IMG/VR virus record: IMGVR_UViG_3300022179_000487
Span: 1 to 61,418 of that record
From: a virus
Taxonomy: Duplodnaviria > Caudoviricetes
DNA length: 61,418 nucleotides
Strand: one strand, 5' to 3'
Within the stretch, counting starts at the first letter, position 1; each line of letters opens with the position of its first letter. The translations under genes were made by a program, and so were the position numbers. The notes beneath the pieces are model-generated. The model did not search any database. It had not been told where the DNA came from and worked only from the letters and a program-made list of their open reading frames with translations. Shown one piece after another: positions 4,814-60,175 of this stretch.

Positions 4814-4906
4814 ATGACCTGGCCTTTCCCACCTTTTCCCTTACCCCCTTACAAAGAACCTAAGGGGCCCATTTATCCTTCCGATGCAGAAGATGCTCCG
4901 GTATAG
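4814..4906 (+). CDS. 30-aa proline-rich microprotein (MTWPFPPFPLPP...)
   Basis: Strong RBS GGAGGAG before ATG; followed by a terminator. Confidence 0.6.
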   Translation: MTWPFPPFPLPPYKEPKGPIYPSDAEDAPV

Positions 4907-4924
4907 TAAAGGCGCAGTTGCTTT

Positions 4925-4952
4925 ACCCCGGTCTGGTGCCGGGGTCTTTTTT
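4925..4952 (+). terminator. Intrinsic terminator
   Basis: ACCCCGG-loop-CCGGGGT followed by CTTTTTT. Confidence 0.7.
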
Positions 4953-5153
4953 ATGATTGATTACGCATACCCAACCATGCTGGCCGAGCGGGCTCTTGAC
5001 GAGCTACACCGCGCCATGCTCAGACGTGACTACGACACAGCTCTTGAACAGGCTCTCGAGGCGGCGACCCAGTGTCGGCTGATTTCAGTGTCTATCAGGG
5101 ATATGGCTGAGAAAGAACTGGAGAGAGTCAATGCTCACAGGAATACTGTTTAG
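4953..5153 (+). CDS. Hypothetical protein
   Basis: MIDYAYPTML... helical ORF that overlaps the next gene. Confidence 0.65.
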   Translation: MIDYAYPTMLAERALDELHRAMLRRDYDTALEQALEAATQCRLISVSIRDMAEKELERVNAHRNTV

Positions 5154-5337
5154 CAAGTACCCATTCTTGCAAATCAATTGGACCCAGGACGTCGAGCCAT
5201 GGCCGGCGGATATCGGGACGGCCAAGGTGACGAGCTGCCTGAATCGCTTCGAGATGTTGCTCGAGGGGGATATTCCCTCTGATGCCGTAAGGACTTGGGC
5301 GCACGAGCAGTTGGATGCCTGGCTGGACGAGCGATAG
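5131..5337 (+). CDS. Hypothetical protein
   Basis: GGAG upstream; overlaps previous ORF. Confidence 0.55.
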   Translation: MLTGILFSKYPFLQINWTQDVEPWPADIGTAKVTSCLNRFEMLLEGDIPSDAVRTWAHEQLDAWLDER

Positions 5338-5346
5338 AATTTTTAG

Positions 5347-5422
5347 ATCCAGGCGGTCCAACGGGTTAGCGCCGTTGCTCTGAATTCAAACAGTCACACT
5401 GCTTTATGTGAGCCGCTTGGAT
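5347..5422 (+). ncRNA. Putative structured small RNA, copy 1
   Basis: Closing stem ATCCAGGCGG/CCGCTTGGAT; boxes CGGGTTAGCGCCGT and CACTGCTTTATGTGAGC shared with copy 2; TAGAAT -10 at 5335-5340. Confidence 0.7.
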
Positions 5423-5430
5423 ATCTTTTT

Positions 5431-5515
5431 TGCCTGGGCTGAACCGGGTTAGCGCCGTGGTCACTTTTACAAGTGTTGTTCAAGCCGCCACTGCTTTATG
5501 TGAGCAGCCCAGGCA
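5431..5515 (+). ncRNA. Putative structured small RNA, copy 2
   Basis: Closing stem TGCCTGGGCTG/CAGCCCAGGCA; same two boxes with a different core. Confidence 0.7.
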
Positions 5516-5520
5516 CCCTG

Positions 5521-5551
5521 TTGACAAACAAATAAAAACATGCTGTATAAT
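5521..5551 (+). promoter_or_regulatory. Putative sigma70 promoter
   Basis: Consensus TTGACA (5521-5526) and TATAAT (5546-5551), but with a 19-nt spacer. Confidence 0.65.
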
Positions 5552-5559
5552 TGAGACAT

Positions 5560-5721
5560 CGACGGATTGGTAACCCGTCGTAGCTCTGTGTAAGTGACCT
5601 CCTGAGAGCCTTTTAGTGGGTGCTCGGGCTTCGTCAAAGCTATCTGCAAGTGGCACAGCACTGCAGGTAAGCGGCAACCAAGCCCAAAGCTCGATCCCCG
5701 ACTAAAGGGCTTTTTGCTTTT
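5560..5721 (+). ncRNA. Structured leader or antisense-type RNA ending in a U-tract
   Basis: Hairpin CGACGG/CCGTCG; long-range stem AGCCTTTTAGT (5607-5617)/ACTAAAGGGCT (5701-5711); inner GGGCTT/AAGCCC; then TTTTTGCTTTT. Confidence 0.55.
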
Positions 5722-5754
5722 CTGGCCGCTGTTACCTTAACTTGAGGAGCAGAT

Positions 5755-6045
5755 GTGCCACGCGACTTTAAAACAGATCCCAAGCCGGGAACAAACAGGT
5801 TCAGGATTCAGCAATTGAATCAAGCAACTGATCCTAAGTTCGCAGTATTCCTTCGTGCTCCATCAGGACAGAGTGCCAGGTTCCAGGCGCTTCACGAAAC
5901 ACCAGAGTCTGCCCTTGATGCAGCTCGATTCCACGCCGCAGAAGCAGCCGGCCACGGAAACACAGATTTCACCTACTACGTCATAGAGATCAAGCACCGC
6001 GTTGGCATTGAGCACGGCAAGCTGGTAGATGAGCCTATGGCGTGA
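5755..6045 (+). CDS. Hypothetical protein
   Basis: GTG start after GAGGAG; isolated between structured non-coding tracts. Confidence 0.75.
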   Translation: MPRDFKTDPKPGTNRFRIQQLNQATDPKFAVFLRAPSGQSARFQALHETPESALDAARFHAAEAAGHGNTDFTYYVIEIKHRVGIEHGKLVDEPMA

Positions 6046-6055
6046 TGGTTACCCT

Positions 6056-6425
6056 CCCGGCGGGTAGCCGGGCGTAAGGCTGCGTTAACCAAATGGCTCA
6101 GAAATCAGGCCATGACCGTAAGAACCCGAAAGGGCTGACCGACCCACACAGCGTTAAGGTGGTAGATAAATAGTGCTGGCTCTCGGTGGCCCGATCCAGC
6201 GACCTGACAAAACTCGGTACGTCCCCCTATGGCTAATACCCACGAAAGCCGTCGTCATAGGGATCAGTCAGCCGGAAATGACTGAGGGACACACAGGTAC
6301 GGGAATCCTGTGGCCGGTAAGCCCACAAGGCCTAGCCGGAAGCGAAGCTGGAGATCTAAAGCGCCTTGCTTGGCGCGCTGACACCCTAAGACCCTGGTCA
6401 AGGGGCACGTCAGGGATCAAAAGCC
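6056..6425 (+). other. Hairpin-dense non-coding tract (candidate large ncRNA or replication origin)
   Basis: At least seven consecutive inverted repeats including a GAAA tetraloop; no credible ORF. Confidence 0.5.
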
Positions 6426-47069: not shown

Positions 47070-48776
47070 ATGATGCAACCCAGCGCAAATGGCATTGCCT
47101 CCCTGTTTCAAGGGAATCCTGCGGCCTTGCAGCAACGCGTTCAAAAAGAGGAACAGGCCAAGCCTGGTTTGCCTCCTGACCTGACAGAGTTGATGGCTCT
47201 TCAGATCCTGACTGAGGAGAATGACGCAGCCCAACGCCAGATGGCCATGAACCAGCTCCAGCAGGCCGGTGGTGCCAACATGCCTACGGTGGCTCAGACC
47301 CTCCAGGAGCGGGCTAAGCAAGCCCTGCAAGCACGCATGATGCAGGCGCAACAGCAAGCTCAGCAACCGCCCCAACCCCAGCCTATCCCCACTGCTCCAC
47401 CGGCAGACCAGCCTGAGGCTAGCCCTGAGATGTTGCAACAACTGGCTGCTTTGCAAGCCCAGGGTAAGGGTGGCTTGGATCAATTGCCATCGAATGTGGG
47501 TAATTATGCTGGTGGTGGAATCATTGCATTCCAAACAGGTGGTGATACTCCACGTCTAGATAAAGAAGATCCAGAAGAGCGTGATCGTCGAGAGCGTGAG
47601 ATGGAAATCCAGCGGCTTATCGCAAGAGCAGAGGCTGACAAGCAAGACCGCCCCCGCGTTGTTAGCCAGGTTCCTCCTGGAGGCCCTGATCTACCCCAAG
47701 GTATTGCTGGTGCTCGTAGATATCCCAAGCCGCCTGAGGCTCGGATGGAGCCCCCTGCACCTCCCGCTGCTCCGCCTACTGCTCCGCCTGCAGCGCCTCC
47801 TCAGCCCCGGCCTGCGCCCATGGGCATTTTGACTCCGGAGCAGGCATCTCAGGTTAAACAAGTTCAACTGGACCGCCTGAACCTGAATCCGTATGAGCGG
47901 GAGCGTTTGGCCCGGGAAGAGGCTGAGAAGTTTGTTGGTGCTCCTGAAACTGCTAGCCTGCAATCTTTGGCCGATGAGTTGGCAGCAAAACGTCAACGTA
48001 TTGCACAACGTCAGCAAGAGAACAAGGGATTTGATGCTTTGATGCGAAACATTGCTGCAGCTCCTCGTGGTCTTACCTCGGCAGCAGCTGGTGTGTTTGG
48101 CAGCGAACGTATGCGCGCTACAGAACGTGAGCTTGAAACGCAAGACTTTGAGACTCTTAAGAGCATGCTTGATACCCAGGCCAAGATCTCTGACGTCAAG
48201 CGTGGCTGGAAGAAAGACCTGTTTACGATTGGTAAAGCAGAGTTTGACAAAGTGTACAAAGACAATCTTGAAGCAGCACTTGCTTTGGGTAAATCTGATT
48301 CTGAAGCCAAGAAGCTGGCCCAAGAGGCTGTGCTTGAGGCTGACAGACAAGCTAATGCCGTTAAAGTTGCGAACATTTATGCCGGCCCGCAACAGGCCGC
48401 TAACGCTCGTACTGAAAGGGCAATTCAAGCTATGCTCAAGAAGCCTGGCAACGAGAAGATGACCTATGACGAGGCTCTTCTGGCCGTTACTAACCCGACT
48501 TCTTATTTGTCATCAGACAAGCAAAACCTTGCAACCATTAAGTCTGCTGCTGACAAATTAGCAATTTTGGCAGATCCTAGCAAGAGCCCTCTTGATCCTG
48601 AAGGTCAGAAGCAAGCTGCTCAAGATTTAGTTAAATTGACCAAAATAATGGCGCAAATGGGTGGGGCAGAAGTTGGTGGTTATGAACCAGTTACAGTTAC
48701 TGCTGGGGGTAAAACTTACTCCTTCCCAAATCAAGCCGCTGCTGATAAATTTAAGGCTCAAGCAGGAATCAAATAA
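47070..48776 (+). CDS. Putative ejection protein
   Basis: Helical, Q/P/A-rich; YAGGGIIAFQTGG. Confidence 0.65.
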   Translation: MMQPSANGIASLFQGNPAALQQRVQKEEQAKPGLPPDLTELMALQILTEENDAAQRQMAMNQLQQAGGANMPTVAQTLQERAKQALQARMMQAQQQAQQPPQPQPIPTAPPADQPEASPEMLQQLAALQAQGKGGLDQLPSNVGNYAGGGIIAFQTGGDTPRLDKEDPEERDRREREMEIQRLIARAEADKQDRPRVVSQVPPGGPDLPQGIAGARRYPKPPEARMEPPAPPAAPPTAPPAAPPQPRPAPMGILTPEQASQVKQVQLDRLNLNPYERERLAREEAEKFVGAPETASLQSLADELAAKRQRIAQRQQENKGFDALMRNIAAAPRGLTSAAAGVFGSERMRATERELETQDFETLKSMLDTQAKISDVKRGWKKDLFTIGKAEFDKVYKDNLEAALALGKSDSEAKKLAQEAVLEADRQANAVKVANIYAGPQQAANARTERAIQAMLKKPGNEKMTYDEALLAVTNPTSYLSSDKQNLATIKSAADKLAILADPSKSPLDPEGQKQAAQDLVKLTKIMAQMGGAEVGGYEPVTVTAGGKTYSFPNQAAADKFKAQAGIK

Positions 48777-51700
48777 TGGACTACGACGCTCTGGCAAAAC
48801 AGTTCGGTGGGGTCGAAACAAAGCCAGAGAATCTGGATGCTTTGGCCAAACAGTACGGTGGTACTTTAGTCAAGGAGCCAGGCTTCTTATCCAACGTAGG
48901 AGAGCTCTTAGTCAAGGGCGGCAAGCAAGCCCTAACGTCAGCTGAGGTTGCCCCGGCCGTCATCTCTGGTGGTGATGTTGCGGCCAAGTCTCGCGTGATT
49001 GCCGAGCAGTTGGCCACGCCCACAGCCAATGAGCCTAGAGAGCTAAAAGAGATTAAGGGTGCCTTCAAAGAAGAGGGCAAAGCCTGGGAAGAAGCTCAAG
49101 GGTTCATGCAGGGCTCCAAGGCTATTGGCGAGATGCTCTATGAGGTGGGGCGTCAGGCCATTACCAATCCCAAGGGCTTGATGTACATGACCGCTGAACA
49201 GGCGGCAAACATGGTTCCCTCTATCGTCGGCATGCTGGCTGGTGGTAAGGGTGGTGCTGCTGTTGGCGCGCTTGGTGGTCCCGGTGGTGCGGCCATTGGT
49301 GCTGGTATTGGAGCTATCGGCGGCGCATTCACTGGCCAAGCCCCTGTTGAGATTGGCTCTGAGTTCATTGGCTTGATTGGTAAAGAGCTTCAAAAACGTG
49401 GGCTAGAACCCACCGAGCGTAACGTCCAGGCCCTGATGCAGGACAAGGCGTTCGTGCAACAAGCCATCTCTGACGCCCGTACCAAAGGCGCTACAACTGC
49501 CGCTATCGACGCGGCTACTACGCTTGCCGGCGGTAGGTTTGCTGGCGGGGCTAAGAACGCAGCTATCAAGGCAGCTCGTACTGAGCTTGGTGCTGGCGCT
49601 GATCTGACTCAAATAGCCAGCCGGGCTAACGAAATCATGGCTAGCCGCACGCTTGCCCAGAAGGTTGGCCGTGGCCTGGGTGGTGCTGGCATCGACATTG
49701 CCGGCGGTGGTATCTCTGAAGCCGGTGGCCAGCTCGCGGCCTATGGCAAGGTGGATCTAGAAGATGTTGCCTTGGAAATGTTGGGCGAGCTTGGAGGGGC
49801 GGCTGTTGAGGTTCCCTTGGCAGCACGCTCCCTGCGTACTCCTGGCCTTCCTGGGGCGCTTAAACAGCCTGCACCTACCGTTACCCCTCCTGAGGCTGTT
49901 GCGCCTCCCACAGAGCCTTCTGCGGCCCCGCCTGCTCCGCCTGCCGAACCCATGGCACAAGCAGCCCCGTCAGAGGCCCAAGATACTTCCGAAATGCTGA
50001 GGGAGATCCTGGCTCAAACAGAGGAAAGACCTGCTGCACAACCGCCTGTTTCTACTGGTAAACCCGTAGAACCAAAGGTAACACCAGGGCCTGTTACACC
50101 CCCAGAAGTGAGTACTTTTGGGACAGAAGTGAAACAAGTTACACGCACTCCACAGCCCCCTGTTGCAGCGGCTGAGCCTGCGGTAACGCCTGCCCCTGAG
50201 CAACCAACTACTCCTCCTACCGCGCCTGCAGTAACGCCTACTGCTGCGCCAACAAACACGTTGGATCAGCTGCTAGGCGGCGCATTTGCAGACTCAGAAA
50301 TCGGTATTACGCGGGCATCTACAGTTAGAGATGCAATTAACGCTATTGCTAAGATTCCTGGCGCAAGATTGAATAAAAATGAACTTAGTTATCCGCAAAA
50401 AATTGCTGGCGCGTCAAACGCTTTAATCCTAAAAACACCAGAACAACAAGAATACGCAAAAACACTTCTAGAACAACAGCGCAAGCCAGCGGCTACTGAA
50501 GACTGGTGGAATGAACTTCCAGAAATAAAAAGTGAGAATATTATTGCCCCGGCTGGTGAATACAAACCAGGGCAAAAAGTTGAACTTAATGGCCGCACAT
50601 GGATTGTTACCGCTGTTAGCCATACCGGAAATCAAATTACCGTTAAGTCTGCCGATGGTGCATTTGAAGAGCGCCGAATTGAAGTAGCCAAGGTTGCACC
50701 TACCCCGCCTGCAGCAGTAACCCCGACACCAATCCAGGTCTACATGGGTCTGGAAGATGCTTCAACCGAGTCGTTGAAAGATGGCCCTGTCAAGGATGTG
50801 TTGTTAGCGAGTGGCATGATTAACGGCAGAGGAATCTTGACGCCATCTGGCCGTGATTTGCTTACCAAAATTAAGCCACCCGGGCTCAGTGCAAGACAGC
50901 CGACCGGCGAAGAAGCCGAGGCGATGATTCGTGAAAACGTGTTGCAACCTGCCGCAAAGGCACCTGCCATTGCTCCTGCTCCTGCCGCCCCTGTAACGCC
51001 TGCCAAACCGGCCGCTGTTGAGATCGTCGAGCGTTTCCCCATGGGCGAGAACACCGAGTACCGGGTGGTTAAGACGCAGGTTGGATACGCTGCCAACCTA
51101 TATGACGCAGATGCCGGCAAGTACGTGCCTGGATCTGCCCGTATATTCAAGACCGAAACCTTTGGCGATCAGGCTCGGGCCAAGGCTACTGAGTTTGCCC
51201 GTGGCGAGTTTGAGAAGACACAGCCCAAAGAAACTCCCAAAGCAGTAGAGCCTGAAGCCAAGCCTACCGAAGCTGACGAGAAAGCCAAGGCCAAGCAAGA
51301 CCTGGAAGACGCCCTGGGTGATCTGTCCATGCTGTTGACCAAGCCTGGTCGCATGAACATCGTCCCTGAGGATGAACAAAAGCTCATGCCGATCCTGACC
51401 AGGATTATGGATGCAGCCTTCCGCCTTGGAAAGATCAAGTTCAAGGAAGCTGCCCGGTTTGTAATGGACACGATCCGTTCCAAGCTGGGTGACGAAGCTG
51501 CTGACCAGATCACCCTAGATCACCTGCAGGGTGCCTACATTGGAATGGCCGGCAAGTACCAGGATCAGGGTGCTAGCTCCAAGAAGGAAGTTATCGCTGT
51601 TGAGTCTATGGAAGGTCTGGCAGAAGCTCCTGCCGTCGATCCTCAGGCGATTGCTGACCACTTCCTGGAAGGAAATGAGTTTGGCAACATCAATGCTGCG

Positions 51701-54700
51701 CGCATGTTCTTGACCAACAAATTTAATGTTGATGCACGTCCGGGCACAGAGGGTGCCAAGAAAGCTGATGAAGCCATTGAGGCAGGGATAGTTATTGCCG
51801 CTCGTCAGATCGTCAAAGACGGCAAGAATCCTCAAGACATTTTTGATAAGTTGGTGGACCTTTATGATCGCCAGCCCAACCTGTCTGTACGCAGCTCAAC
51901 CAGCGTAGCCAACCAGGCTTACTCCACGCCCGCCCCTCTGGCCTATGTGGCGTCTGAGCTGGCTGGCATCACCAACAAAACCAGCGTGCTTGAGCCCACT
52001 GCAGGCAACGGTATGCTGTTGATCGCGGCTAACCCGGACAAAGTTACAGCCAACGAGCTGGACAAGGGTCGCTTTGAGGCTTTGAAATCCATCATGCCTG
52101 GCGCAGACATTACCCAGGGTAATGCTCTGGAGATGGACATTGAGAACAACGCCTTTGACGTTGTGATTGCCAACCCGCCGTTTGGCAAGGCTGGTGAGAT
52201 CAGCAACATCGACCACGACATTGTCCTGAAGTCCTTGGTTGGGATGAAGGAAGACGGCCGCGCTGTCCTGATTGTTGGCGGTGTCCAGGCAACGACCGAA
52301 GAGGGACGCCGCGAGGGTTACAGAGGCCGTGCCAAGCGTGATTTCTATTACGAGCTGTACAACCTGTACAACGTCGTGGATCACTTTACTGCCGGCGGCA
52401 ACATGTACGCCAAGCAGGGCACCACCTATCCCGTTGATGTGATCGTGATTGATGGGGTTGGCAAGTCATCCCGCGATCTGCCTGCAGCTGACCTGCCAGA
52501 GCTCATCACCACATACGAACAACTGAAGGAGAAGCTAAATGAACCCATGGTATCCCGAGAAGATCGTGGCACCGCCGGAGCTGACGTCGGTGTTAGTGCC
52601 GAGCGGGAAGCTGAGCGAGAAGCAGTGGGTCGAGGCGCTGAGCGACCGAGTGGCGGACCTAGCGCTGAAGGAAGAGAACCCGCTGGAGGCGGCGAACGAG
52701 GCGTGTCGGAGGCTAGACCTACCGAGCGTGGACAACGCGAACCAAGTGGGCGAGGCGCTGGTGAAGTACAACCTAAACCTGCTGACGTATCTGAGCGTGG
52801 AGCAAAGGGAGAACCAGTGGCCGGCGCAGGTGAGCGGGCCAAGCGAGCCGGCGAAGAAGGCGCTGAAGGACGTGGACTTCCCAAGCTGGGTGGAGTTAGC
52901 GTTGTCTCAGGTGAACGTGTCGGATCTGGCCTAGCAGAGCGCCGTGGCCTGGAGACCGAGACAGAAAACCAGGTTGCTTACTATCCCCACTCTAAAGCCA
53001 GCTCTGTTGGAACCCTGGTTCCCAAGGCTATGGCTGAATCGATCGAGAACTCTCTAGCCAAGATTGAGAGCTCGGTCGGAGACCTGGATAACTACGTTGC
53101 TGAGTCTTTGGAAATGGATCCTGAGACGGTGCGTGAGCTGTTCTCTGCTGAGCAGGTTGATGCTCTAGCCCTGGCCATCTACAACGCAGAGGCCGGCAAA
53201 GGCTTCATCATTGGCGACCAGACCGGCGTGGGTAAGGGCCGTGTTGTGGCTGGGATGATCCGTTACGCGTTGATCAACAACAAGATTCCGTTCTTTGTGA
53301 CCGAGAAGCCCAACCTGTACTCGGACATGATCCGGGACTTGGACGATATCGGGATGACCAAAGAGCTTGGCCTGGATACAGCTAAGCCCAATATCCTGAT
53401 TACGAACAATGACGAAACGATTCCCTATACCCTTTTGCGAGAGGTTAATGGGGAGATTGTTGAGAACAACTTAACCCTCAGACCTCCAAAAACTGGCGGT
53501 GCAGAGATGGATGCTGTTCTCAAGAAGATGCAGCAAAACGATAGCCTGGGTGATTACAAAGTAGTTTTCACTACGTATAACCAGTTACAAACGGTTAGAG
53601 GCAAAGAGACCGAGCGTCAGAGATTTATCAATCAGTTTGCCACTGGCAACTACATGATCTTTGACGAGAGCCACAACGCTGGCGGTGCTGGTGAGACTCA
53701 GGCTCGTACCAAAGAACAAAGAGAGAAGGCTAAAGCAGGTGAAAGCCTGGTGACCGGGCGTGCATCATTTGTACGTAATCTGGTTAACAAAGCCTACGGC
53801 ACGTTCTTCTCCTCGGCCACGTATGCCAAACGCCCTGACGTGATGGATCTTTACTCCAGCACGGACATGAGCCTGGCTGTGGATAAGATTTCTGATCTGG
53901 CAGAAGCCATCAAGTCTGGCGGCATTCCGATGCAGCAGACCGTGGCCCGTATGCTGACTCAGGTTGGCCAGTACATTCGCCGCGAGCGCACGTTTGCAGG
54001 TGTCTCGTACAACACGCAGGAAACCAGCGTAGATAAGCAAACAGCCGAGAACATGGCCACGTCTATGCGGGACATCCTGGCCTTCTCTCGCGCCAAGGAA
54101 GTAGTTGTCAAAGACTTACAAAAAGAGTTTGACAAGCAAGGTGCCAAGCTGGCCATAGAAGGCGAAAAGACCAAGGTGCAGAGTGCGAACTTTGGTTCAA
54201 CCATGCACAATCTGATTAACCAGATGTTGTTGTCTTTGAAGGCGCAGGACTCTGTACGTCACGCCATCGAGAGATTGAAGGCTGGCGAGAAGGTTGTCAT
54301 GACCGTATCTAACACCATGGGCTCTTTCTTGAAGAGCTATGCTGATGATATGGACTTGAACGTTGGCGATGCCGTTGAGCTGTCATTCAAGGATCTGTAC
54401 AACCGCTATCTTGAAAAGCAACGCACTATCACGATCAAACCACCCAAGGGTAAGGGCGAACGTAAAGAATATCGTTTGACGGACGCCGACCTTGGGCCTG
54501 AATTGACCAAGCAATTCAATGATATTCAAAAGTTCATTGAGAACGCTGGTTTTGGTTCTGCACCCATGTCTCCGATCGACTACATGCACGCTGAGTTGCG
54601 TAAGGCAGGCTACAAGACTGAAGAGATCACGGGTCGTACCATGACCCTGAACTACGAGAGTGGCCGTCCCATTCTGACTAGCCGATCTGCCAACATCAAG

Positions 54701-57700
54701 CAACGTGTTAAGGCTGTCAAAAACTTTAACAGCGGCGCAGTTGACGTAATTATCCTGAACCAAGCTGGTTCTACCGGACTGTCGTTGCACGCCTCTAGCA
54801 AGTTCAAGGATCAGCGTAAGCGTCACATGATCATTGTTCAACCAGAGGCAAACATCGACACCCACATGCAGATGCTGGGCCGTGTTCACCGTACTGGCCA
54901 GGTGATCCCGCCTGCGTACTCTCAGATGATGGCTGACATCCCTGCTGAGATGCGCCCTGCCGCCATCCTGCTCAAGAAGATGGCCAGCCTGAACGCCAAC
55001 ACCACGGCTTCACGCAAGTCCGCTGTGACGGCTGAAGGCGCTGTTGACTTCATGAACGAGTACGGTGGTCAGGTTGCCCAGGAATACCTGCGTGACAACC
55101 CAGAGGTTTATGAAGCCCTGGGCGGCGAGAAGATTATGGAGATTGCAGAGGATCCGTCCGGGGCCGGCGAAGAAGACATTCGCAAGCTGACTGGGTATAT
55201 CCCAATCCTGCCGATCAAGCAGCAGGAAGAGGTATACAAGGATCTGGTTGAGCGCTACAACGATCTGATTGAGCGCGAAGACAGCATGGGCAGCAACAAG
55301 CTGGAATCCAAGGCTGCTGACCTGGACGCCAAGACCCTTGCTTCTGTGCCCATCACCGAGGACAAGGGTGATCCGTCTATCTTTGCCAAGCCTGCCATCA
55401 TGGAGAAGGTGGACGTCAAGCGCACGGTCAAGCCTTACTCCAAGGAAGAGGTTCAGCGCCAGGTTCAAAACAGCCTGAACGGGGAGAAACCCAGCGAGAA
55501 GTCTTCTCGTATGTGGCACGACCTGAGCGACCGCACCAAAGCATATGGCAAGTCTATTATCGAGAAGATGGAAGCCGAGGCTGAGCCAGACCGGGTCAAG
55601 ATCGAATCTATAAAGGGCCAGATCAACGCCCAGTACACCCACATCAAGACGGTCCTGACTGAGTTTCCGATCGGTACTCCAGTGGTGGCCAAGAACTCCA
55701 AGGGCATGCTGGTCAAGGGCGTTGTGACCGACATCCAGAACAAGCAGAAGACCAAGAACCCTGCGGCCGGCTCTGATTGGCAGATGACGATTGCCCTGGC
55801 TGACGGGGAATCCAAGTCCACCTCGATGCCGTTCTCTCAGATTGGTAGCGTGTACCAGCTGAAGCGAGAGCTCGAGACGCCTTGGTTCAACCAAGAGACC
55901 GACAAGTTCGAATACATCCCCATGCTGGATCTGTTCGACAAGGGTGCAACTGTGCGCCGCGAAAATCGTTGGATGGTGACCGGCAACATCCTGGCTGGGT
56001 TTGCTGCTGTCAACAACATGGGCCATATCAGAACCTATACCAAGGATGATGGCACCACGGCCCAGGGTATCTTGATGCCCCGCACGTTTGACTTTGAGAA
56101 AGCTCAGAAGAACGCAGATGTTCGCCTGAAGAACCTTGCCGCGGTAATGGACTTCTTCAACACGTTTGGCCGTAATGCTGAGGTCAGCACGCCGGATGGG
56201 AACCTGAGAATCGCCTACATGGGCGGGACTGAGTACCGCTTTGTTACACCCAGCTCCAAGCGTGAGGGCGGTTCTTTCTATCTGGACAAGGGCCTGACCG
56301 ACATTACTGGTGACTTGTACAAGTCTGGTCAGATCATGCGTACAACGGTCTATGACCAGGATAAAGCCAACGAAGCTATCCAGTACCTGTTGGCTGACCG
56401 GGGCGAGACTCTGATTGCTTACAACCACAAGGACGAAGCTCGGGAGATGTTTGCTCCCAAGATGCCTCTGGCTAACGTCCAGCCTGATGTTGAGCGTGAG
56501 AGTCTCAACACAACGGCCAACTTTGTTGCTGACCGTGAGACGTTGATCCGCAAGTACCAGAGTATGCGTCAGAAGCGCGGCATGATTCTGCGTAAGTTTA
56601 AGAAAGGCCAAGCCGGCCTGGATGAACAAGAGGCAATCAATACGATTGATGATGTTGCTAGCCAGCTCAAGGATGAGATCGCTGCAAGCAAGGTCAAGCG
56701 CACAGACGCCAAGAACTTCTTTGCCCAGGCCACCAAGCAGTGGAACGAAGGCAACATCAGCGATGACGTGTACGCCGCCATCAAGACGATGTACGAGAAG
56801 TTCCCCTTCGTGCTGGAAGGGCTGAACCTGTCTGTGAAGCAACAGCCGGCAGACAGTAATGCCGCTGGTCAGTTCTTCTCTCTGGCTCGTCTGGTCCGTC
56901 TGTACAAAGGAACCAACGGCGTCCAAGATCCTGTGACCATTCGTCACGAGGTCACCCATGGCCTCGAGCAGATGATGACTGCTGATGCTGCGGCAGACCT
57001 GATCATGGATTGGACAGACAAGCTGGGTAAAGCGATCAAGAAAGAGAAGTCTCCCAAGGCCCGTGCTTACTTCCAGGCAATCCTTGAGTTCTTTGAGAAC
57101 CCGTCTATCGAGGCATATAACAATGCCATGGGCTTGATGCCTAGCTACGACTATTACCAGTACATCAACCCGTCTGAGTACTGGGCTGTCAATGCTGAGA
57201 AGTTGATGGCACGCAAGCTGGGTACTGGCTGGGATAAATTCGTCCTGGCCGCTAAGCGCCTGTTCGAAGGTCTGAAGTACATGTTCGGTTTTGACAACCA
57301 GTACGTTGTGCATCGGATCTTCAACGACATCATGACGTCTAAGGGTGAACGCTTTACCAAAGCGGCCCTGAATGACTACGTCGAAGCCAGCGTGATGGGC
57401 ATGCTCAACCTGGATGAGAACACCCGTCGCAACTACAAGGGCAAGCCTGCTCCTCTGTCTGTGTGGGATTCTCCTGAGAAGTCCAAGATGGACGACTGGG
57501 CATACCGCTGGCAGGACAAGCACGTTGATACCAAGCGTGTTGTGCAGGCTGTGGTCAAAGGCATTGGCGAGATTGCTGACCGCTTTGATGCCTACTTGAA
57601 AGAGACGCTGTACCACGGTCGTGTTTCCAAGCAGACCATGGACTTCCTCAAGCGTGACTTCCGTCCGTTCATCGAGAAGATGGGCAAGATGGGCGTCAAG

Positions 57701-60175
57701 GTTGACGAGTTTGAGTTCTACCTGCAGAACCGCCACGCCCAGGAATACAACGACCTGATCGCGGCCCGTAACCCTGGCATGCCTGACGCTGGTTCTGGCA
57801 TCCCCACGGATGATGCAATTGCTTATCTCAACGGCCTGAGCAAGGAAGAGAAAGCTAAGTACGAAGAGCTGGCCAAGGACATCGACAAGTTTGTCGAGGG
57901 CACCCAGGACATGCTGGTGGCCAACGGGCTTGAAACCCAGGAGCGTATCGATTCTTGGCGTGACATGTTCAAGCACTACGTCCCGCTCAAGCGCGATCCC
58001 AACGAGCTGGACTTTGTGAACCCGAGCTTTGGCATGGGTAAGGGCTTTGCCATCAAGGGTGACTTCTCCCGTACGGCTACCGGCTCGCTGAAGACGGTTG
58101 TGGATATCCTAAACAACATTGCCCTCCAGCGTGAGATGGCGATCGTCAGGTCTGAGAAAGCCCGCGTGGGTCGTGCTCTGTACGGCATGGCTCTGCAGGC
58201 TCCCAACCCTGAGTTCTGGATGCCCATCAATCCTGATGCGGTCAAGAACAAGAAGAAGCTGATCGCCGAGCTCCAGGCTATGGGCTTGGATCCTGACACG
58301 GCAGAGAACATCTTCCAGCAACCACGCAGTCCTAGCATCGATAAGAAAACAGGACTGGTTCAATACCGAATCAATCCCAACGTTCTTAATGCAGAGAACG
58401 TGTTCCCGGTTCGTATCAATGGCAAAGACCGGTTCATCATCTTTAACCCGGCTGATGAGCGTGCCAAACGTATGGTCAAGGCTCTGAAGAACCTGGACGC
58501 CAACCAGCTTGAGAACGGGCTGGACACGGTTGCTGAGCTGACCCGCCTGATCGCGGCCATGAACACTCAGTTCAACCCCGTGTTCGGTGCCTGGAACTTT
58601 GTGCGTGACGTGGAGTCTGCAGCCGTCAACCTGACTGGCACTCCGATCGCAGACAAGCGCATGGAAGTTGTGGCTGGGGCTATCCCCGCGCTCAAGGCAA
58701 TCTACCGTGACCTGCGCGGCAAGACCCCGGCAGATGCCGAGGCTAAGGAGTGGATTGACCTGTATGAGCGCTTTGCCAACGCTGGTGGCCAGACTGGTTA
58801 CCGCGAGCAGTTCACCCGCGCCAAGGACAAGGCAACCCTGGTTCAACGTGAGATGGCCCGTTTGGACCGATCTAATGTGCGCCGTGTTGCCCAGTCTGTG
58901 GCTGACTGGTTGTCTGACTACAACGACGCCATGGAAAACGCCGTGCGTCTGTCAGCGTTCAAAGCTGGCCTGGAGTCAGGCATGTCCGAGGATCGGGCTG
59001 CTGAGTTGGCCAAGAACCTTACGGTTAACTTCAACCGTAAAGGATCCTGGACTACCAATGCTAATGCCTTCTATGCCTTCCTGAACGCCTCTGTGCAGGG
59101 CTCTGCCCGTATGGCTCAGCTGCTCTTCAAGCGTGATGACAATGGCAAGATCAGCCTGACAAAGGGTGGTAAGGCTGTTATCGCTGGCGGCATGATGATT
59201 GGTGCCATGCAAGCTGCGCTCCTGGCCTTCGCAGGCTTTGACGCAGACGAGCCCCCTGAGTTCTTGAAGAACAAGAACCTGATCATCCCCAACCCGTTTG
59301 GCCAGGGCTATGCAATCATCCCCATGCCACTGGGTTTGAACGTGTTCCCCAACGTGGCACGCCTGGTAACCGAGTATGCGCTGACCCAGGCCGGAGCTAT
59401 GACGGGTAAGCGTGATCTGCCTAAGACCATCCTGAGCATGGCCTCTGCTGTGCTGGATGCCTTCAACCCGCTGGGTTCTAGCGGCCTGATCCAGACCCTG
59501 TCGCCCACGTTGTCAGATCCATTTTTTGCTATCGCTGAGAACAAGGATGCCTTTGGCCGGCCGATCTCCAAGGAGAACCGTGCTACCAATCCGTCGCCTG
59601 GATGGGAGCGCAGCCGGGACAATGCATCTGCCATCAGCCAGGGTTTGGCCTACGGTATCAACTACTTGACGGGTGGTGGTAAGTACGGCATCGGTGCATT
59701 CAGCCCGACCGCTGACGACATTGACTATGCTTTCTCCCAGTACGTGGGTGGCCTGGGTCGTGAGATCTCCAAAGCAGCTGGCTTCGTCAAGGCTAAGGTC
59801 GAGGGTGAAGAGACACCGCCGTACAAGGTGCCGATCCTGGGCAAGGCTTATGGTGAGACGGAGACCCCGTCAGCTGTGTCGGACAAGTTCTACAAGAACG
59901 TCACGATGCTGGCTGAGCTCGAGGGTGAGATGAAGCGCATGCGGGAGAAGCGTGAGAATCTCTCAGAGTTCATGAAGGATAATCCCGAGTACCGATTCAT
60001 CCAGAACGCCAACAACCTGGAGAATCAGATTTCCAAGATTAACAAGACGATCAAGGAAATACAAAAGCGCCCGGAGACTGAGCAGACCAAGGCCCAGATC
60101 GAGCGCTACAAAGAACAAAAGCAACGGATGATGAATAACTTCAATGAACGTATCAAGGCTTTACAACGTCAATAA
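48776..60175 (+). CDS. Giant polyvalent virion protein: N6-adenine MTase, Strawberry-notch SF2 helicase, HExxH peptidase, LPD38-like C-terminus (DarB-like)
   Basis: VLEPTAGNG (about 51986), NPPF (52172), GDQTGVGKGR (about 53213), DESH (53663), QMLGRVHR (about 54869), HEVTH (56945), VNFNRKG/FLNASVQG. Confidence 0.88.
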   Translation: MDYDALAKQFGGVETKPENLDALAKQYGGTLVKEPGFLSNVGELLVKGGKQALTSAEVAPAVISGGDVAAKSRVIAEQLATPTANEPRELKEIKGAFKEEGKAWEEAQGFMQGSKAIGEMLYEVGRQAITNPKGLMYMTAEQAANMVPSIVGMLAGGKGGAAVGALGGPGGAAIGAGIGAIGGAFTGQAPVEIGSEFIGLIGKELQKRGLEPTERNVQALMQDKAFVQQAISDARTKGATTAAIDAATTLAGGRFAGGAKNAAIKAARTELGAGADLTQIASRANEIMASRTLAQKVGRGLGGAGIDIAGGGISEAGGQLAAYGKVDLEDVALEMLGELGGAAVEVPLAARSLRTPGLPGALKQPAPTVTPPEAVAPPTEPSAAPPAPPAEPMAQAAPSEAQDTSEMLREILAQTEERPAAQPPVSTGKPVEPKVTPGPVTPPEVSTFGTEVKQVTRTPQPPVAAAEPAVTPAPEQPTTPPTAPAVTPTAAPTNTLDQLLGGAFADSEIGITRASTVRDAINAIAKIPGARLNKNELSYPQKIAGASNALILKTPEQQEYAKTLLEQQRKPAATEDWWNELPEIKSENIIAPAGEYKPGQKVELNGRTWIVTAVSHTGNQITVKSADGAFEERRIEVAKVAPTPPAAVTPTPIQVYMGLEDASTESLKDGPVKDVLLASGMINGRGILTPSGRDLLTKIKPPGLSARQPTGEEAEAMIRENVLQPAAKAPAIAPAPAAPVTPAKPAAVEIVERFPMGENTEYRVVKTQVGYAANLYDADAGKYVPGSARIFKTETFGDQARAKATEFARGEFEKTQPKETPKAVEPEAKPTEADEKAKAKQDLEDALGDLSMLLTKPGRMNIVPEDEQKLMPILTRIMDAAFRLGKIKFKEAARFVMDTIRSKLGDEAADQITLDHLQGAYIGMAGKYQDQGASSKKEVIAVESMEGLAEAPAVDPQAIADHFLEGNEFGNINAARMFLTNKFNVDARPGTEGAKKADEAIEAGIVIAARQIVKDGKNPQDIFDKLVDLYDRQPNLSVRSSTSVANQAYSTPAPLAYVASELAGITNKTSVLEPTAGNGMLLIAANPDKVTANELDKGRFEALKSIMPGADITQGNALEMDIENNAFDVVIANPPFGKAGEISNIDHDIVLKSLVGMKEDGRAVLIVGGVQATTEEGRREGYRGRAKRDFYYELYNLYNVVDHFTAGGNMYAKQGTTYPVDVIVIDGVGKSSRDLPAADLPELITTYEQLKEKLNEPMVSREDRGTAGADVGVSAEREAEREAVGRGAERPSGGPSAEGREPAGGGERGVSEARPTERGQREPSGRGAGEVQPKPADVSERGAKGEPVAGAGERAKRAGEEGAEGRGLPKLGGVSVVSGERVGSGLAERRGLETETENQVAYYPHSKASSVGTLVPKAMAESIENSLAKIESSVGDLDNYVAESLEMDPETVRELFSAEQVDALALAIYNAEAGKGFIIGDQTGVGKGRVVAGMIRYALINNKIPFFVTEKPNLYSDMIRDLDDIGMTKELGLDTAKPNILITNNDETIPYTLLREVNGEIVENNLTLRPPKTGGAEMDAVLKKMQQNDSLGDYKVVFTTYNQLQTVRGKETERQRFINQFATGNYMIFDESHNAGGAGETQARTKEQREKAKAGESLVTGRASFVRNLVNKAYGTFFSSATYAKRPDVMDLYSSTDMSLAVDKISDLAEAIKSGGIPMQQTVARMLTQVGQYIRRERTFAGVSYNTQETSVDKQTAENMATSMRDILAFSRAKEVVVKDLQKEFDKQGAKLAIEGEKTKVQSANFGSTMHNLINQMLLSLKAQDSVRHAIERLKAGEKVVMTVSNTMGSFLKSYADDMDLNVGDAVELSFKDLYNRYLEKQRTITIKPPKGKGERKEYRLTDADLGPELTKQFNDIQKFIENAGFGSAPMSPIDYMHAELRKAGYKTEEITGRTMTLNYESGRPILTSRSANIKQRVKAVKNFNSGAVDVIILNQAGSTGLSLHASSKFKDQRKRHMIIVQPEANIDTHMQMLGRVHRTGQVIPPAYSQMMADIPAEMRPAAILLKKMASLNANTTASRKSAVTAEGAVDFMNEYGGQVAQEYLRDNPEVYEALGGEKIMEIAEDPSGAGEEDIRKLTGYIPILPIKQQEEVYKDLVERYNDLIEREDSMGSNKLESKAADLDAKTLASVPITEDKGDPSIFAKPAIMEKVDVKRTVKPYSKEEVQRQVQNSLNGEKPSEKSSRMWHDLSDRTKAYGKSIIEKMEAEAEPDRVKIESIKGQINAQYTHIKTVLTEFPIGTPVVAKNSKGMLVKGVVTDIQNKQKTKNPAAGSDWQMTIALADGESKSTSMPFSQIGSVYQLKRELETPWFNQETDKFEYIPMLDLFDKGATVRRENRWMVTGNILAGFAAVNNMGHIRTYTKDDGTTAQGILMPRTFDFEKAQKNADVRLKNLAAVMDFFNTFGRNAEVSTPDGNLRIAYMGGTEYRFVTPSSKREGGSFYLDKGLTDITGDLYKSGQIMRTTVYDQDKANEAIQYLLADRGETLIAYNHKDEAREMFAPKMPLANVQPDVERESLNTTANFVADRETLIRKYQSMRQKRGMILRKFKKGQAGLDEQEAINTIDDVASQLKDEIAASKVKRTDAKNFFAQATKQWNEGNISDDVYAAIKTMYEKFPFVLEGLNLSVKQQPADSNAAGQFFSLARLVRLYKGTNGVQDPVTIRHEVTHGLEQMMTADAAADLIMDWTDKLGKAIKKEKSPKARAYFQAILEFFENPSIEAYNNAMGLMPSYDYYQYINPSEYWAVNAEKLMARKLGTGWDKFVLAAKRLFEGLKYMFGFDNQYVVHRIFNDIMTSKGERFTKAALNDYVEASVMGMLNLDENTRRNYKGKPAPLSVWDSPEKSKMDDWAYRWQDKHVDTKRVVQAVVKGIGEIADRFDAYLKETLYHGRVSKQTMDFLKRDFRPFIEKMGKMGVKVDEFEFYLQNRHAQEYNDLIAARNPGMPDAGSGIPTDDAIAYLNGLSKEEKAKYEELAKDIDKFVEGTQDMLVANGLETQERIDSWRDMFKHYVPLKRDPNELDFVNPSFGMGKGFAIKGDFSRTATGSLKTVVDILNNIALQREMAIVRSEKARVGRALYGMALQAPNPEFWMPINPDAVKNKKKLIAELQAMGLDPDTAENIFQQPRSPSIDKKTGLVQYRINPNVLNAENVFPVRINGKDRFIIFNPADERAKRMVKALKNLDANQLENGLDTVAELTRLIAAMNTQFNPVFGAWNFVRDVESAAVNLTGTPIADKRMEVVAGAIPALKAIYRDLRGKTPADAEAKEWIDLYERFANAGGQTGYREQFTRAKDKATLVQREMARLDRSNVRRVAQSVADWLSDYNDAMENAVRLSAFKAGLESGMSEDRAAELAKNLTVNFNRKGSWTTNANAFYAFLNASVQGSARMAQLLFKRDDNGKISLTKGGKAVIAGGMMIGAMQAALLAFAGFDADEPPEFLKNKNLIIPNPFGQGYAIIPMPLGLNVFPNVARLVTEYALTQAGAMTGKRDLPKTILSMASAVLDAFNPLGSSGLIQTLSPTLSDPFFAIAENKDAFGRPISKENRATNPSPGWERSRDNASAISQGLAYGINYLTGGGKYGIGAFSPTADDIDYAFSQYVGGLGREISKAAGFVKAKVEGEETPPYKVPILGKAYGETETPSAVSDKFYKNVTMLAELEGEMKRMREKRENLSEFMKDNPEYRFIQNANNLENQISKINKTIKEIQKRPETEQTKAQIERYKEQKQRMMNNFNERIKALQRQ
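52539..52934 (+). CDS. Nested 131-aa gene in the +1 frame of the giant gene
   Basis: AAGGAG at 52526-52531, 7 nt before ATG; globular-looking sequence; coincides with the low-complexity linker of the host frame. Confidence 0.7.
   Translation: MNPWYPEKIVAPPELTSVLVPSGKLSEKQWVEALSDRVADLALKEENPLEAANEACRRLDLPSVDNANQVGEALVKYNLNLLTYLSVEQRENQWPAQVSGPSEPAKKALKDVDFPSWVELALSQVNVSDLA

Follow-up and report, generated by a model that had tools for sequence, protein, structure and literature searches.

The two adjacent units at positions 5347–5515 of the virus record IMGVR_UViG_3300022179_000487 are two copies of a real, widespread small structured RNA of uncultured Burkholderiales phages and a few Burkholderiales chromosomes. 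The record was analyzed over its whole length of 61,418 bases, here called the window, and is a complete virus record with direct terminal repeats. The RNA family is apparently undescribed and we regard it as new; its general kind, that of phage leaders and small structured RNAs, is known. Its sequence context suggests that it is mostly the 5′ leader of early (replication/recombination) operons. Our leading explanation is a self-contained leader module that offers its invariant loops for docking by a conserved host factor; we hold this reading tentatively, since taken whole it falls a little short of an even chance.

A first-pass annotation, made from the sequence alone, had described the two units as tandem cloverleaf-like small RNAs with two shared boxes around a variable core. 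Box 1 (CGGGTTAGCGCCGT) and box 2 (CACTGCTTTATGTGAGC) stand where that annotation placed them, the inter-box stretches are indeed 21 and 30 nt long, and the closing stems (P1) differ between the units and are paired in both (Table 1). A covariance model built from relatives found exactly two places across the 61,418 bases, both on the + strand, and these are the two units; the two-unit observation exceeds chance. Unit 2 has a folding z-score of −2.9. The minimum free energy (MFE) fold of unit 2 alone lacks the two internal hairpins, P2 and P3, and in this unit they are predicted from family covariation and not from its own MFE fold.

Table 1. Positions of the RNA units and of the features around them in the window (position 1 is the first base of the window).
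Feature	Position	Strand	Details
TAGAAT, −10-like hexamer	5335..5340	+	ends 6 nt 5′ of the first P1 base of unit 1
Unit 1	5347..5422	+	covariance model 58.2 bits, E 3.4e-16; fold −29.9 kcal/mol, z −3.44
Unit 1, P1	5347-5357/5412-5422		ATCCAGGCGGT/GCCGCTTGGAT; 11 pairs including wobbles
Unit 1, P2	5359-5364/5372-5377		loop GUUAGCG, 5365-5371
Unit 1, middle	5378-5396		
Unit 1, P3	5397-5399/5408-5410		loop UGCUUUAU, 5400-5407; register from family covariation
Box 1, units 1 and 2	5362-5375 and 5445-5458		
Box 2, units 1 and 2	5397-5413 and 5489-5505		
Six-T run	5426..5431	+	directly 3′ of the unit 1 closing stem; last T is the first base of the unit 2 stem
Unit 2	5431..5515	+	covariance model 48.6 bits, E 2.9e-13; two non-standard P2 pairs marked
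Unit 2, P1	5431-5441/5505-5515		TGCCTGGGCTG/CAGCCCAGGCA; 11/11 complementary (perfect 11-nt inverted repeat)
Unit 2, P2	5445-5447/5455-5457		3 pairs only; loop 5448-5454
Unit 2, middle	5458-5488		inner hairpin CACUU-UUAC-AAGUG
Unit 2, P3	5489-5491/5500-5502		loop 5492-5499
Promoter-like TTGACA/TATAAT	5521-5526/5546-5551	+	19-nt spacer; directly 3′ of unit 2
Second conserved structured RNA, ~170 nt	5552..5722	+	strong terminator; fold −66.2 kcal/mol, z −3.78

Comparison of the relatives shows a family member to be a predicted three- or four-way junction of 70–100 nt on the + strand. The closing stem, P1, can have any sequence (75 distinct inner 7-mers) and reaches at least 7 bp in 122 of 128 units (median 10), compared with 421 of 2543 mismatched-flank controls (median 4), in which each 5′ flank was paired with the 3′ flank of another unit. 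P2 carries a 7-nt loop, G-Y-U-A-G-Y-K, atop two invariant G-C pairs, and P3 is a 3-bp hairpin, CNC/GN′G, with the 8-nt loop UGCUUYAU. Spacing is near-constant, with 5 nt from P1 to the GGG in 80 of 128 units and 3–4 nt from box 2 to the return strand of P1; the junction strands are variable and measure 0–3 nt. Covariation was assessed in an alignment of 49 in-register members picked for equal spacing and a P1 of at least 7 bp, a selection that biases only the paired fraction of P1. Standard pairs fill 97.1% of the cells in this alignment, against 65.2% in shuffles and 30–42% with slid partners, and double-change cells number 235 against 72 in the shuffles, none of 500 of which reached the observed value. 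Compensatory change is found in 12 of the 16 pairs, and the remaining four never vary. All three predicted helices thus covary strongly. The middle pair of P3 appears as A-U, U-A, and G-C among the 49 members, and as C-G too in a larger alignment, which fixes the register as CNC/GN′G. In P1 and P2, G.U pairs outnumber A.C pairs by 103 to 28 (129 units), and this excess indicates an RNA on the + strand. The innermost pair of P1 (columns 7/99 of alignment A2; 5357/5412 in the window) is U.G in 22 of the 49 members, including unit 1; such a preference beside a junction often marks a recognition point.

The first-pass annotation had proposed building a covariance model and searching viral metagenomes, and that search bears out a genuine RNA family, with at least 120 IMG/VR loci and helices that covary. 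These loci were found with the pattern GGGTTAGCGCC-N15-45-CTGCTTTATG, and our family counts are based on the matches listed, which comprised 121 pattern matches with 114 distinct units. Searched by itself, box 1 matched mostly by chance; among 122 loci, 25 also contained a 14-mer of box 2. Covariance model R1, built from 114 sequences, gave 83 matches in 80 loci. A species-representative genome set held 17 pattern places, about 12 of them with stems by inspection; the carriers with stems are Variovorax (twice), Curvibacter, Achromobacter, Castellaniella, Undibacterium, Rhodoferax, other Burkholderiales metagenome-assembled genomes (MAGs), and one Beijerinckiaceae MAG. Culturable bacteria with copies include Variovorax paradoxus NBRC 15149 and Curvibacter sp. 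CHRR-16, besides Undibacterium strains. Five other genome pattern places, in unrelated phyla, lack the stems and are likely chance matches. The RNA is found in 2 of 151 genomes sampled from the family of carrier G001, a distribution that marks it as mobile cargo and not a core gene. All five phage contigs that are at least 93% complete hold a single copy each, and the tandem pair of the window is therefore a minority arrangement, also present at L140, L154, L177, and L215 and in an Achromobacter prophage.

No Rfam family or tRNA model accounts for these sequences, and the statement of the first-pass annotation that the RNA could not be assigned still stands. Rfam 15 gave no match to the whole window at gathering scores, and at E up to 10 only three chance-level matches within 5000–6000, the best being Phage_DGR with 17.3 bits against a cut-off of 50. 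BLAST of 5100–5800 against GenBank phages found no match, and BLAST of a consensus-like member at E up to 10 returned chance matches only, which never covered the boxes. In the literature (subscription journals not covered), the box strings appear only within unrelated primers, and searches of work on phage structured-RNA discovery and on tRNA-like or Burkholderiales RNAs turned up no description of the motif.

The position of the RNA relative to promoters and genes suggests its place in the transcript. In 45 of 116 distinct upstream regions, the distance from the end of a −10-like hexamer to P1 is 5 nt (9 regions), 6 nt (28), or 7 nt (8), and every other distance within 0–39 nt has a count of 0–7. 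Nineteen of these regions also have a −35 element at 16–18 nt, often as a perfect TTGACA-16-TATAAT. Given this fixed spacing, the RNA usually has a putative sigma-70-type promoter of its own and the transcript is predicted to start at the first base of P1, and the start that the first-pass annotation had assigned to unit 1 from TAGAAT agrees with the family-wide pattern. This hexamer overlaps the stop codon of an open reading frame (ORF) at 5131–5337, and a generic promoter scan called no promoter there because the best −35 (TTGGAT, 18-nt spacer) is weak. The six-T run after unit 1 could be a terminator tail; a terminator scan with a loop limit of 8 nt did not call it. A ribosome-binding site (RBS) and an ORF of at least 50 aa start within 40 nt downstream in 36 of 86 units. 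Of 122 units, a promoter is present in 55, an RBS and an ORF start no more than 45 nt after P1 in 47, and the two features are combined in 30; in about 4 of 10 cases, therefore, the RNA closely precedes the first gene of an early operon. Thirteen of the 122 abut a conserved stem of a neighboring module upstream and 11 do so downstream, and a T-rich tail (at least 6 T in 10 nt) follows 14, including unit 1. The genes directly downstream, judged by eye, include Gp157-like, Cro-like, winged-helix, glutaredoxin-like, and carrier-protein-like genes, and the wider neighborhood holds helicase, primase, exonuclease, resolvase, and replication-initiator genes. A consistently linked protein gene, which the first-pass annotation had recommended looking for, did not emerge, the commonest ORF cluster being present in just 20 of 93 loci. 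An anti-Shine–Dalgarno-like motif in the middle occurs in 15 of 47 ORF-adjacent units and 30 of 75 other units and is no commoner than in the backwards control.

The loops are far more constant than what lies between them. In targeted variant scans, the P2 loop (L2) had no genuine variant at position 5 (G; 5 matches) or position 4 (A; 2 matches), C to U at position 6 was genuine in 5 of 7 matches, and G to U at position 7 was genuine in 23 of 30, with about 10 sequence types. The P3 loop (L3) is unchanged in every genuine L2 variant; the bacterial copies add U2 to C in L2 and U6 to C in L3. In the loop–loop pairing AGCG/UGCU proposed in the first-pass annotation, the C6-to-U change would leave a wobble with G, the G7-to-U change would cost the fourth pair, and the same scans found no compensatory double change between the two loops. 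Complements of the loops occur in the phage at chance level (54, where 42.6 ± 6.3 are expected, and 59, where 55.5 ± 7.9 are), in agreement with the earlier failure to find a convincing target there.

The middle is represented by 123 distinct inter-box sequences, and it is not random. TG[TC][GA]CA occurs in 34 of the 123 distinct middles compared with 1 in the backwards control, GTGTTGT[TGC]C in 18 compared with 2, and TGTGCAAAT in 15 compared with 0, and 76 of 128 middles fold alone into a hairpin. The middle of unit 2 recurs in L222, L135, L201, L162, and L125, where its inner hairpin appears by eye to be kept; the middle of unit 1 has no close relative within the 123-sequence set. Consequently, the earlier picture of a scaffold with a variable insert is right as to an invariant scaffold around a variable middle and has to be amended as to the cores, which carry recurrent motifs. 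Neither are the two cores of the window wholly unrelated, contrary to the earlier description: both hold TTCAA[AG]C just 5′ of box 2, and that of unit 2 is the one found again in the five phage loci named above. A 13-nt stretch of the unit 2 middle (5459–5471) is complementary to 5587–5599, in the single-stranded stretch of the neighboring RNA, at 11 of 13 positions (12 counting one G.U; −16.5 kcal/mol). Across 8 loci, cognate pairs average −9.7 kcal/mol and non-cognate pairs −9.3 kcal/mol, and because cognate pairs are no better, the match is probably due to chance or specific to this phage.

Three features lead us to infer a conserved partner in the host: the loops are identical without a shared neighbor gene, the carriers belong to one order, and no protein is linked to the RNA. 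The two invariant loops would form a docking surface for something conserved in the host and not in the phage, and docking of this kind would explain both why the loops are identical in unrelated phage lineages and why no phage protein travels with them. By analogy, the likeliest single mechanism would be cis action on the transcribing host RNA polymerase like that of the put RNAs of phage HK022, although we consider even this step doubtful because terminators are not enriched downstream, the fold is unlike put, and some copies are stand-alone or at operon ends. The nascent RNA would fold on leaving the polymerase, remain bound, and let the enzyme ignore signals to pause or stop, so that it reaches the early genes. 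In the window, a polymerase starting at 5347 would pass the T-run at 5426–5431 and the strong terminator at ~5700–5722, past which the replication genes would be reached from 5755. A polymerase starting at the second promoter (5521–5551) would stop at ~5700–5722 and yield only the 170-nt RNA. Pfam scans of the 77 window ORFs gave no match to an RNA polymerase family, and the phage therefore depends on the host enzyme.

According to the published account, putL is an element of ~70 nt that closely follows the early promoter PL; its paired region begins at base 3 of the transcript, and it acts without any protein and binds host polymerase (PMC9378689). The family RNA resembles HK022 put in being a phage RNA of ~70–90 nt with two conserved stem-loops and no dedicated protein gene linked to it. 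It also lies just 3′ of an early promoter and is predicted to be paired from the first transcript bases (45 of 116 regions; in the window, TAGAAT 6 nt before 5347), and it would be aimed, like put, at something conserved in the host. Like putR, it occurs inside operons as well. There are also differences: the hosts are betaproteobacterial and not gammaproteobacterial, and each of the five near-complete genomes has one copy, compared with two in HK022.

Several observations weigh against our leading explanation. HK022 put consists of two long bulged stems in a V with a triplex and no closing helix (PMC9378689). The family RNA, set beside put by description only, has the closing helix P1, two short hairpins (6 and 3 bp), and a variable middle. 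HK022 put binds the zinc-binding domain of polymerase β′ and suppresses termination and pausing. An indirect test for a role of this kind was negative: within 1 kb after the family RNA, intrinsic terminators on its strand are no commoner than in controls (17 of 67 loci, compared with 24, 29, and 25 of 67 in three control windows or strands). Neither window unit has an ORF next downstream. In some phages the RNA sits inside arrays with tRNAs and is not leader-like, one chromosomal copy (L329:3889–4010 in G123, with the loop variant UGCUUCAU) has its own GC-rich terminator directly after it, and in an Achromobacter prophage two copies lie where an operon ends, at its 3′ side; such non-leader copies are accounted for equally well by a self-contained RNA that acts in trans. 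The docking partner, moreover, is entirely inferred. Transcript data do not help the case either, as metatranscriptome contigs cannot reveal transcript starts or levels. Contigs from four riverine runs contain unit-2-like sequences from several related phages, and the bin 5412–5512 has the top summed depth in all four; the same runs have no cover over 5513–6421, which proves nothing. We did not use these data as evidence because contigs cannot give expression level, ends, or strand, and because DNA carry-over is possible.

Other phage RNAs share part of this anatomy. Small cloverleaf-like RNAs that phages derive from an early-operon leader include the P1/P7 c4 and P4 CI immunity RNAs, whose functional hairpin loops act via loop-to-target pairing and differ between heteroimmune phages. 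The family RNA has the same small cloverleaf-like form with hairpin loops at an early-operon leader, but its loops are invariant and without complementary sites in the phage, and the C4 model (RF01695) had no match in 5000–6000 at E up to 10. T4 RNAC and RNAD are stable non-tRNA RNAs of phage tRNA clusters. As with these RNAs and with YrlA, some relatives of the family lie co-oriented beside phage tRNA genes or tRNA-like modules and combine a closing stem with a compact multi-hairpin body; unlike T4 RNAC and RNAD, most family copies are outside tRNA clusters, and the window is without a tRNA. The YrlA model (RF02553) matched none of the units, its sole weak match being a neighboring module of L236. 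A link to Ro60 and Y RNAs was considered and rejected, as TROVE was found in 0 of 5 carrier genomes with positive results in the Deinococcus and Bacteroides controls. The tRNA model (RF00005) gave no match at gathering score or at E up to 10, using tools that detect true tRNAs beside relatives. The RNA further departs from the canonical T-loop, D-loop, and anticodon loop (7 nt, with U33 and purine 37) of tRNA, in that the P2 loop has a pyrimidine where purine 37 would be, the P3 loop has 8 nt on a 3-bp stem, and no conserved CCA follows P1 (flanks judged by eye).

Among the alternatives to a docking leader, a trans-acting small RNA deserves most attention. It would be a decoy, sponge, or tRNA-shaped mimic that titrates a conserved host protein, such as a defense or RNA-processing enzyme, abundant from a strong early promoter and freed by its own terminator or by host nucleases cutting the stems. 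We regard this as unlikely on its own terms, though nearly as likely as a put-like mechanism. The stand-alone chromosomal gene with its own terminator speaks for it, as do the T-rich tails after 14 of the 122 units, unit 1 included, the copies that directly precede tRNA-Met (L208) and tRNA-Leu (L210) or sit among stem-bracketed modules, some with tRNA-like arms, and a cloverleaf-like topology with two loops that could touch. Its sporadic presence, in the 2 of 151 genomes from the family of G001, is also what would be expected of mobile anti-defense cargo. On the other hand, tRNA hallmarks are absent (ARAGORN found none, the Rfam tRNA and YrlA models miss the units, and the CCA is not conserved in the flanks inspected by eye), and no Ro60 (TROVE) gene was found in the five carrier genomes. 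An ORF within 45 nt follows 47 of 122 units, and of the 30 units that combine a promoter with an adjacent ORF only 4 have a T-rich tail, so that the RNA would stay joined to the mRNA unless cut. A simpler role, as a plain 5′-end protector or expression booster in which the closing stem shields the 5′ triphosphate from RppH and RNase E, enzymes of 5′-end-dependent decay, and the compact fold keeps the RBS free, with no specific partner, is clearly improbable. 5′-terminal hairpins do stabilize E. coli mRNAs, P1 begins at the predicted first transcribed base, the RBS lies 5–25 nt after P1 and is unpaired with the RNA, and ORF-adjacent units are no richer in the anti-Shine–Dalgarno-like motif. However, protection alone does not call for two loops that stay unchanged in more than 120 phage contigs, or for invariant G-C pairs below them, and there is nothing for the stand-alone and 3′-end copies to protect.

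It is very improbable that the RNA is a riboswitch-like sensor that adjusts early gene expression to a small molecule or ion, even though it is found in 5′ leaders with P1 beside the RBS and forms a three-way junction with two possibly kissing loops. Purine riboswitches have such a junction with kissing loops, and some riboswitch classes come in tandem, as the RNA does in the window. Short, unconserved junction strands and a hypervariable middle leave no conserved pocket; there is no evident expression platform (neither sequestering of the Shine–Dalgarno sequence nor terminator enrichment), and the downstream genes are functionally mixed and not a coherent set. Similarly little chance attaches, jointly, to a new self-cleaving ribozyme and to a DNA-level structure such as a single-strand origin or primosome site. 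In favor are the small size, the covarying stems, and a few invariant bases, together with a sporadic, sometimes tandem occurrence in phages like that of known small ribozymes, and the helicase, primase, and replication-initiator genes nearby. Yet no conserved junction nucleotides are present where a cleavage site would lie. Ribozyme families (hammerhead, twister, pistol, hatchet, and others) gave no Rfam match in the window at gathering scores, in 5000–6000 at E up to 10, or in the loci of 20 relatives at E up to 1. The DNA-level reading is disfavored because the G.U excess and the fixed −10 spacing indicate an RNA that starts at P1. The model of the first-pass annotation, programmable antisense guides whose variable core pairs with targets, is scarcely tenable. 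The middles do differ between units and members, and that of unit 2 can pair with the neighboring RNA at −16.5 kcal/mol. However, this pairing is not conserved over the 8 loci, loop complements are unenriched in the phage, and the middles share motifs, with well over half folding on themselves (76 of 128). The unit 2 middle is conserved in five phages, and the five near-complete genomes have a single copy each and not an array. With recurrent motifs and no targets, programmable guides are not supported. As a separate matter, mimicry of boxA by the P3 loop was also tried and rejected: in five carrier genomes, with a boxA consensus, matches equaled the backwards control, and the likely host boxA, TGTTCTTTAACA (found twice in identical context in G005), is not closely like the P3 loop.

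Strongly covarying new RNA families with more than 100 independent members are rare, and most of those from phages have no known function. In the family described here, near-constant loops and a fixed position at the transcript start point to a direct handle on a conserved host machine. To our knowledge, antiterminator RNAs of the HK022 put type have been a curiosity, confined so far to a few coliphages. If the partner of the docking leader is RNA polymerase, RNA-only control of elongation would be a general phage strategy and not a single textbook oddity, and the RNA would offer a compact, portable leader part for gene expression in Burkholderiales. We rate it as rather unlikely that the RNA forms, beside put, another class of antiterminator that needs no protein, with an unrelated structure and widespread among Burkholderiales phages, both lytic and temperate. 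If the RNA is a decoy, it would point to a host factor that many freshwater phages must neutralize first. Either way, cataloging the family would stop these intergenic regions from being annotated as empty.

A second structured RNA of ~170 nt lies next to the units. The promoter at 5521–5551 belongs to this neighboring RNA and not to the units, the same TTGACA...TATAAT preceding its relatives; the promoter scan missed it because its spacer exceeds 18 nt. The neighboring RNA is 70–73% identical over 166–197 nt in L209, L137, L227, L165, L215, L153, and L148, comes after the family RNA in at least seven other phage loci, and has no Rfam match. It combines a 5′ hairpin, whose loop AUUGGUAAC is conserved, with a variable single-stranded stretch, which in the window holds the anti-Shine–Dalgarno-like CCUCC, and a long terminator hairpin.

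In other phages the family RNA is one of 3–5 folded modules in an array: L127 (2600–3000, − strand), L139, L149, L135, L185, L189, L178, and L236. The modules are bracketed by alternating semi-conserved stems, GTTGGTGG...CCACCAAC and ACACG-CA-TGGGGATTG...CAGTCCCCA-GC-CGTGT (with a 2x2 internal loop), and they have no Rfam match. The inserts differ, and the bracketing stems resemble processing or recombination signals. True tRNA genes come directly after at L208 (Met) and L210 (Leu), L236 has a partial one, and L160 has two. The idea that the units are processed from an array thus fails for the window, which has just two copies and no array of stem-bracketed modules or tRNAs, and holds loosely for these relatives. 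At L236:534–645, and in L139 just 3′ of the family RNA, a module closed by a long stem contains a D-arm-like stretch as well as a good T-arm (GTGGGTTCGAATCCCAC); ARAGORN calls no tRNA in the L236 module, which scores 25.9 bits with YrlA against a cut-off of 69, and the module may be Y-RNA-like or a degenerate tRNA. The G123 genome has three copies of the family RNA, two with identical scores, and an RtcB ligase gene lies 3 kb upstream of the chromosomal copy described above, with an unrelated gene between. A Variovorax region holds two divergent copies 1 kb apart; it has no recognizable phage or repressor genes, and a putL/putR-like geometry is not readable there.

The window itself comes from a phage that is podovirus-like by gene content. 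Its early replication/recombination region encodes Erf, an exonuclease, a Holliday-junction resolvase, a ParB-like protein, an HNH nuclease, a helicase, and a primase, and the record also encodes SU10-type adaptor proteins, a capsid, and a lysozyme. ARAGORN found no tRNA genes in the window. The large terminase is nearest to that of freshwater phage DSL-LC04 (58% identity), and also to those of Pelagibacter phages HTVC027P and HTVC023P. The RNA is absent from DSL-LC04, the nearest cultured relative by terminase, where the best model score is only 11.3 bits. A strong terminator-like hairpin and T-run at 4925–4955 fall within a mechanically predicted ORF (4884–5153), so that either this ORF call is questionable or transcription stops here, shortly before the RNA island. 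At 48776–60175, an ORF of 3,799 aa combines LPD38, P-loop, and Strawberry-notch-type (SNF2-type) helicase domains. It belongs to the "polyvalent proteins," which are believed to enter the host along with the injected phage DNA, and is not an N4-type virion RNA polymerase.

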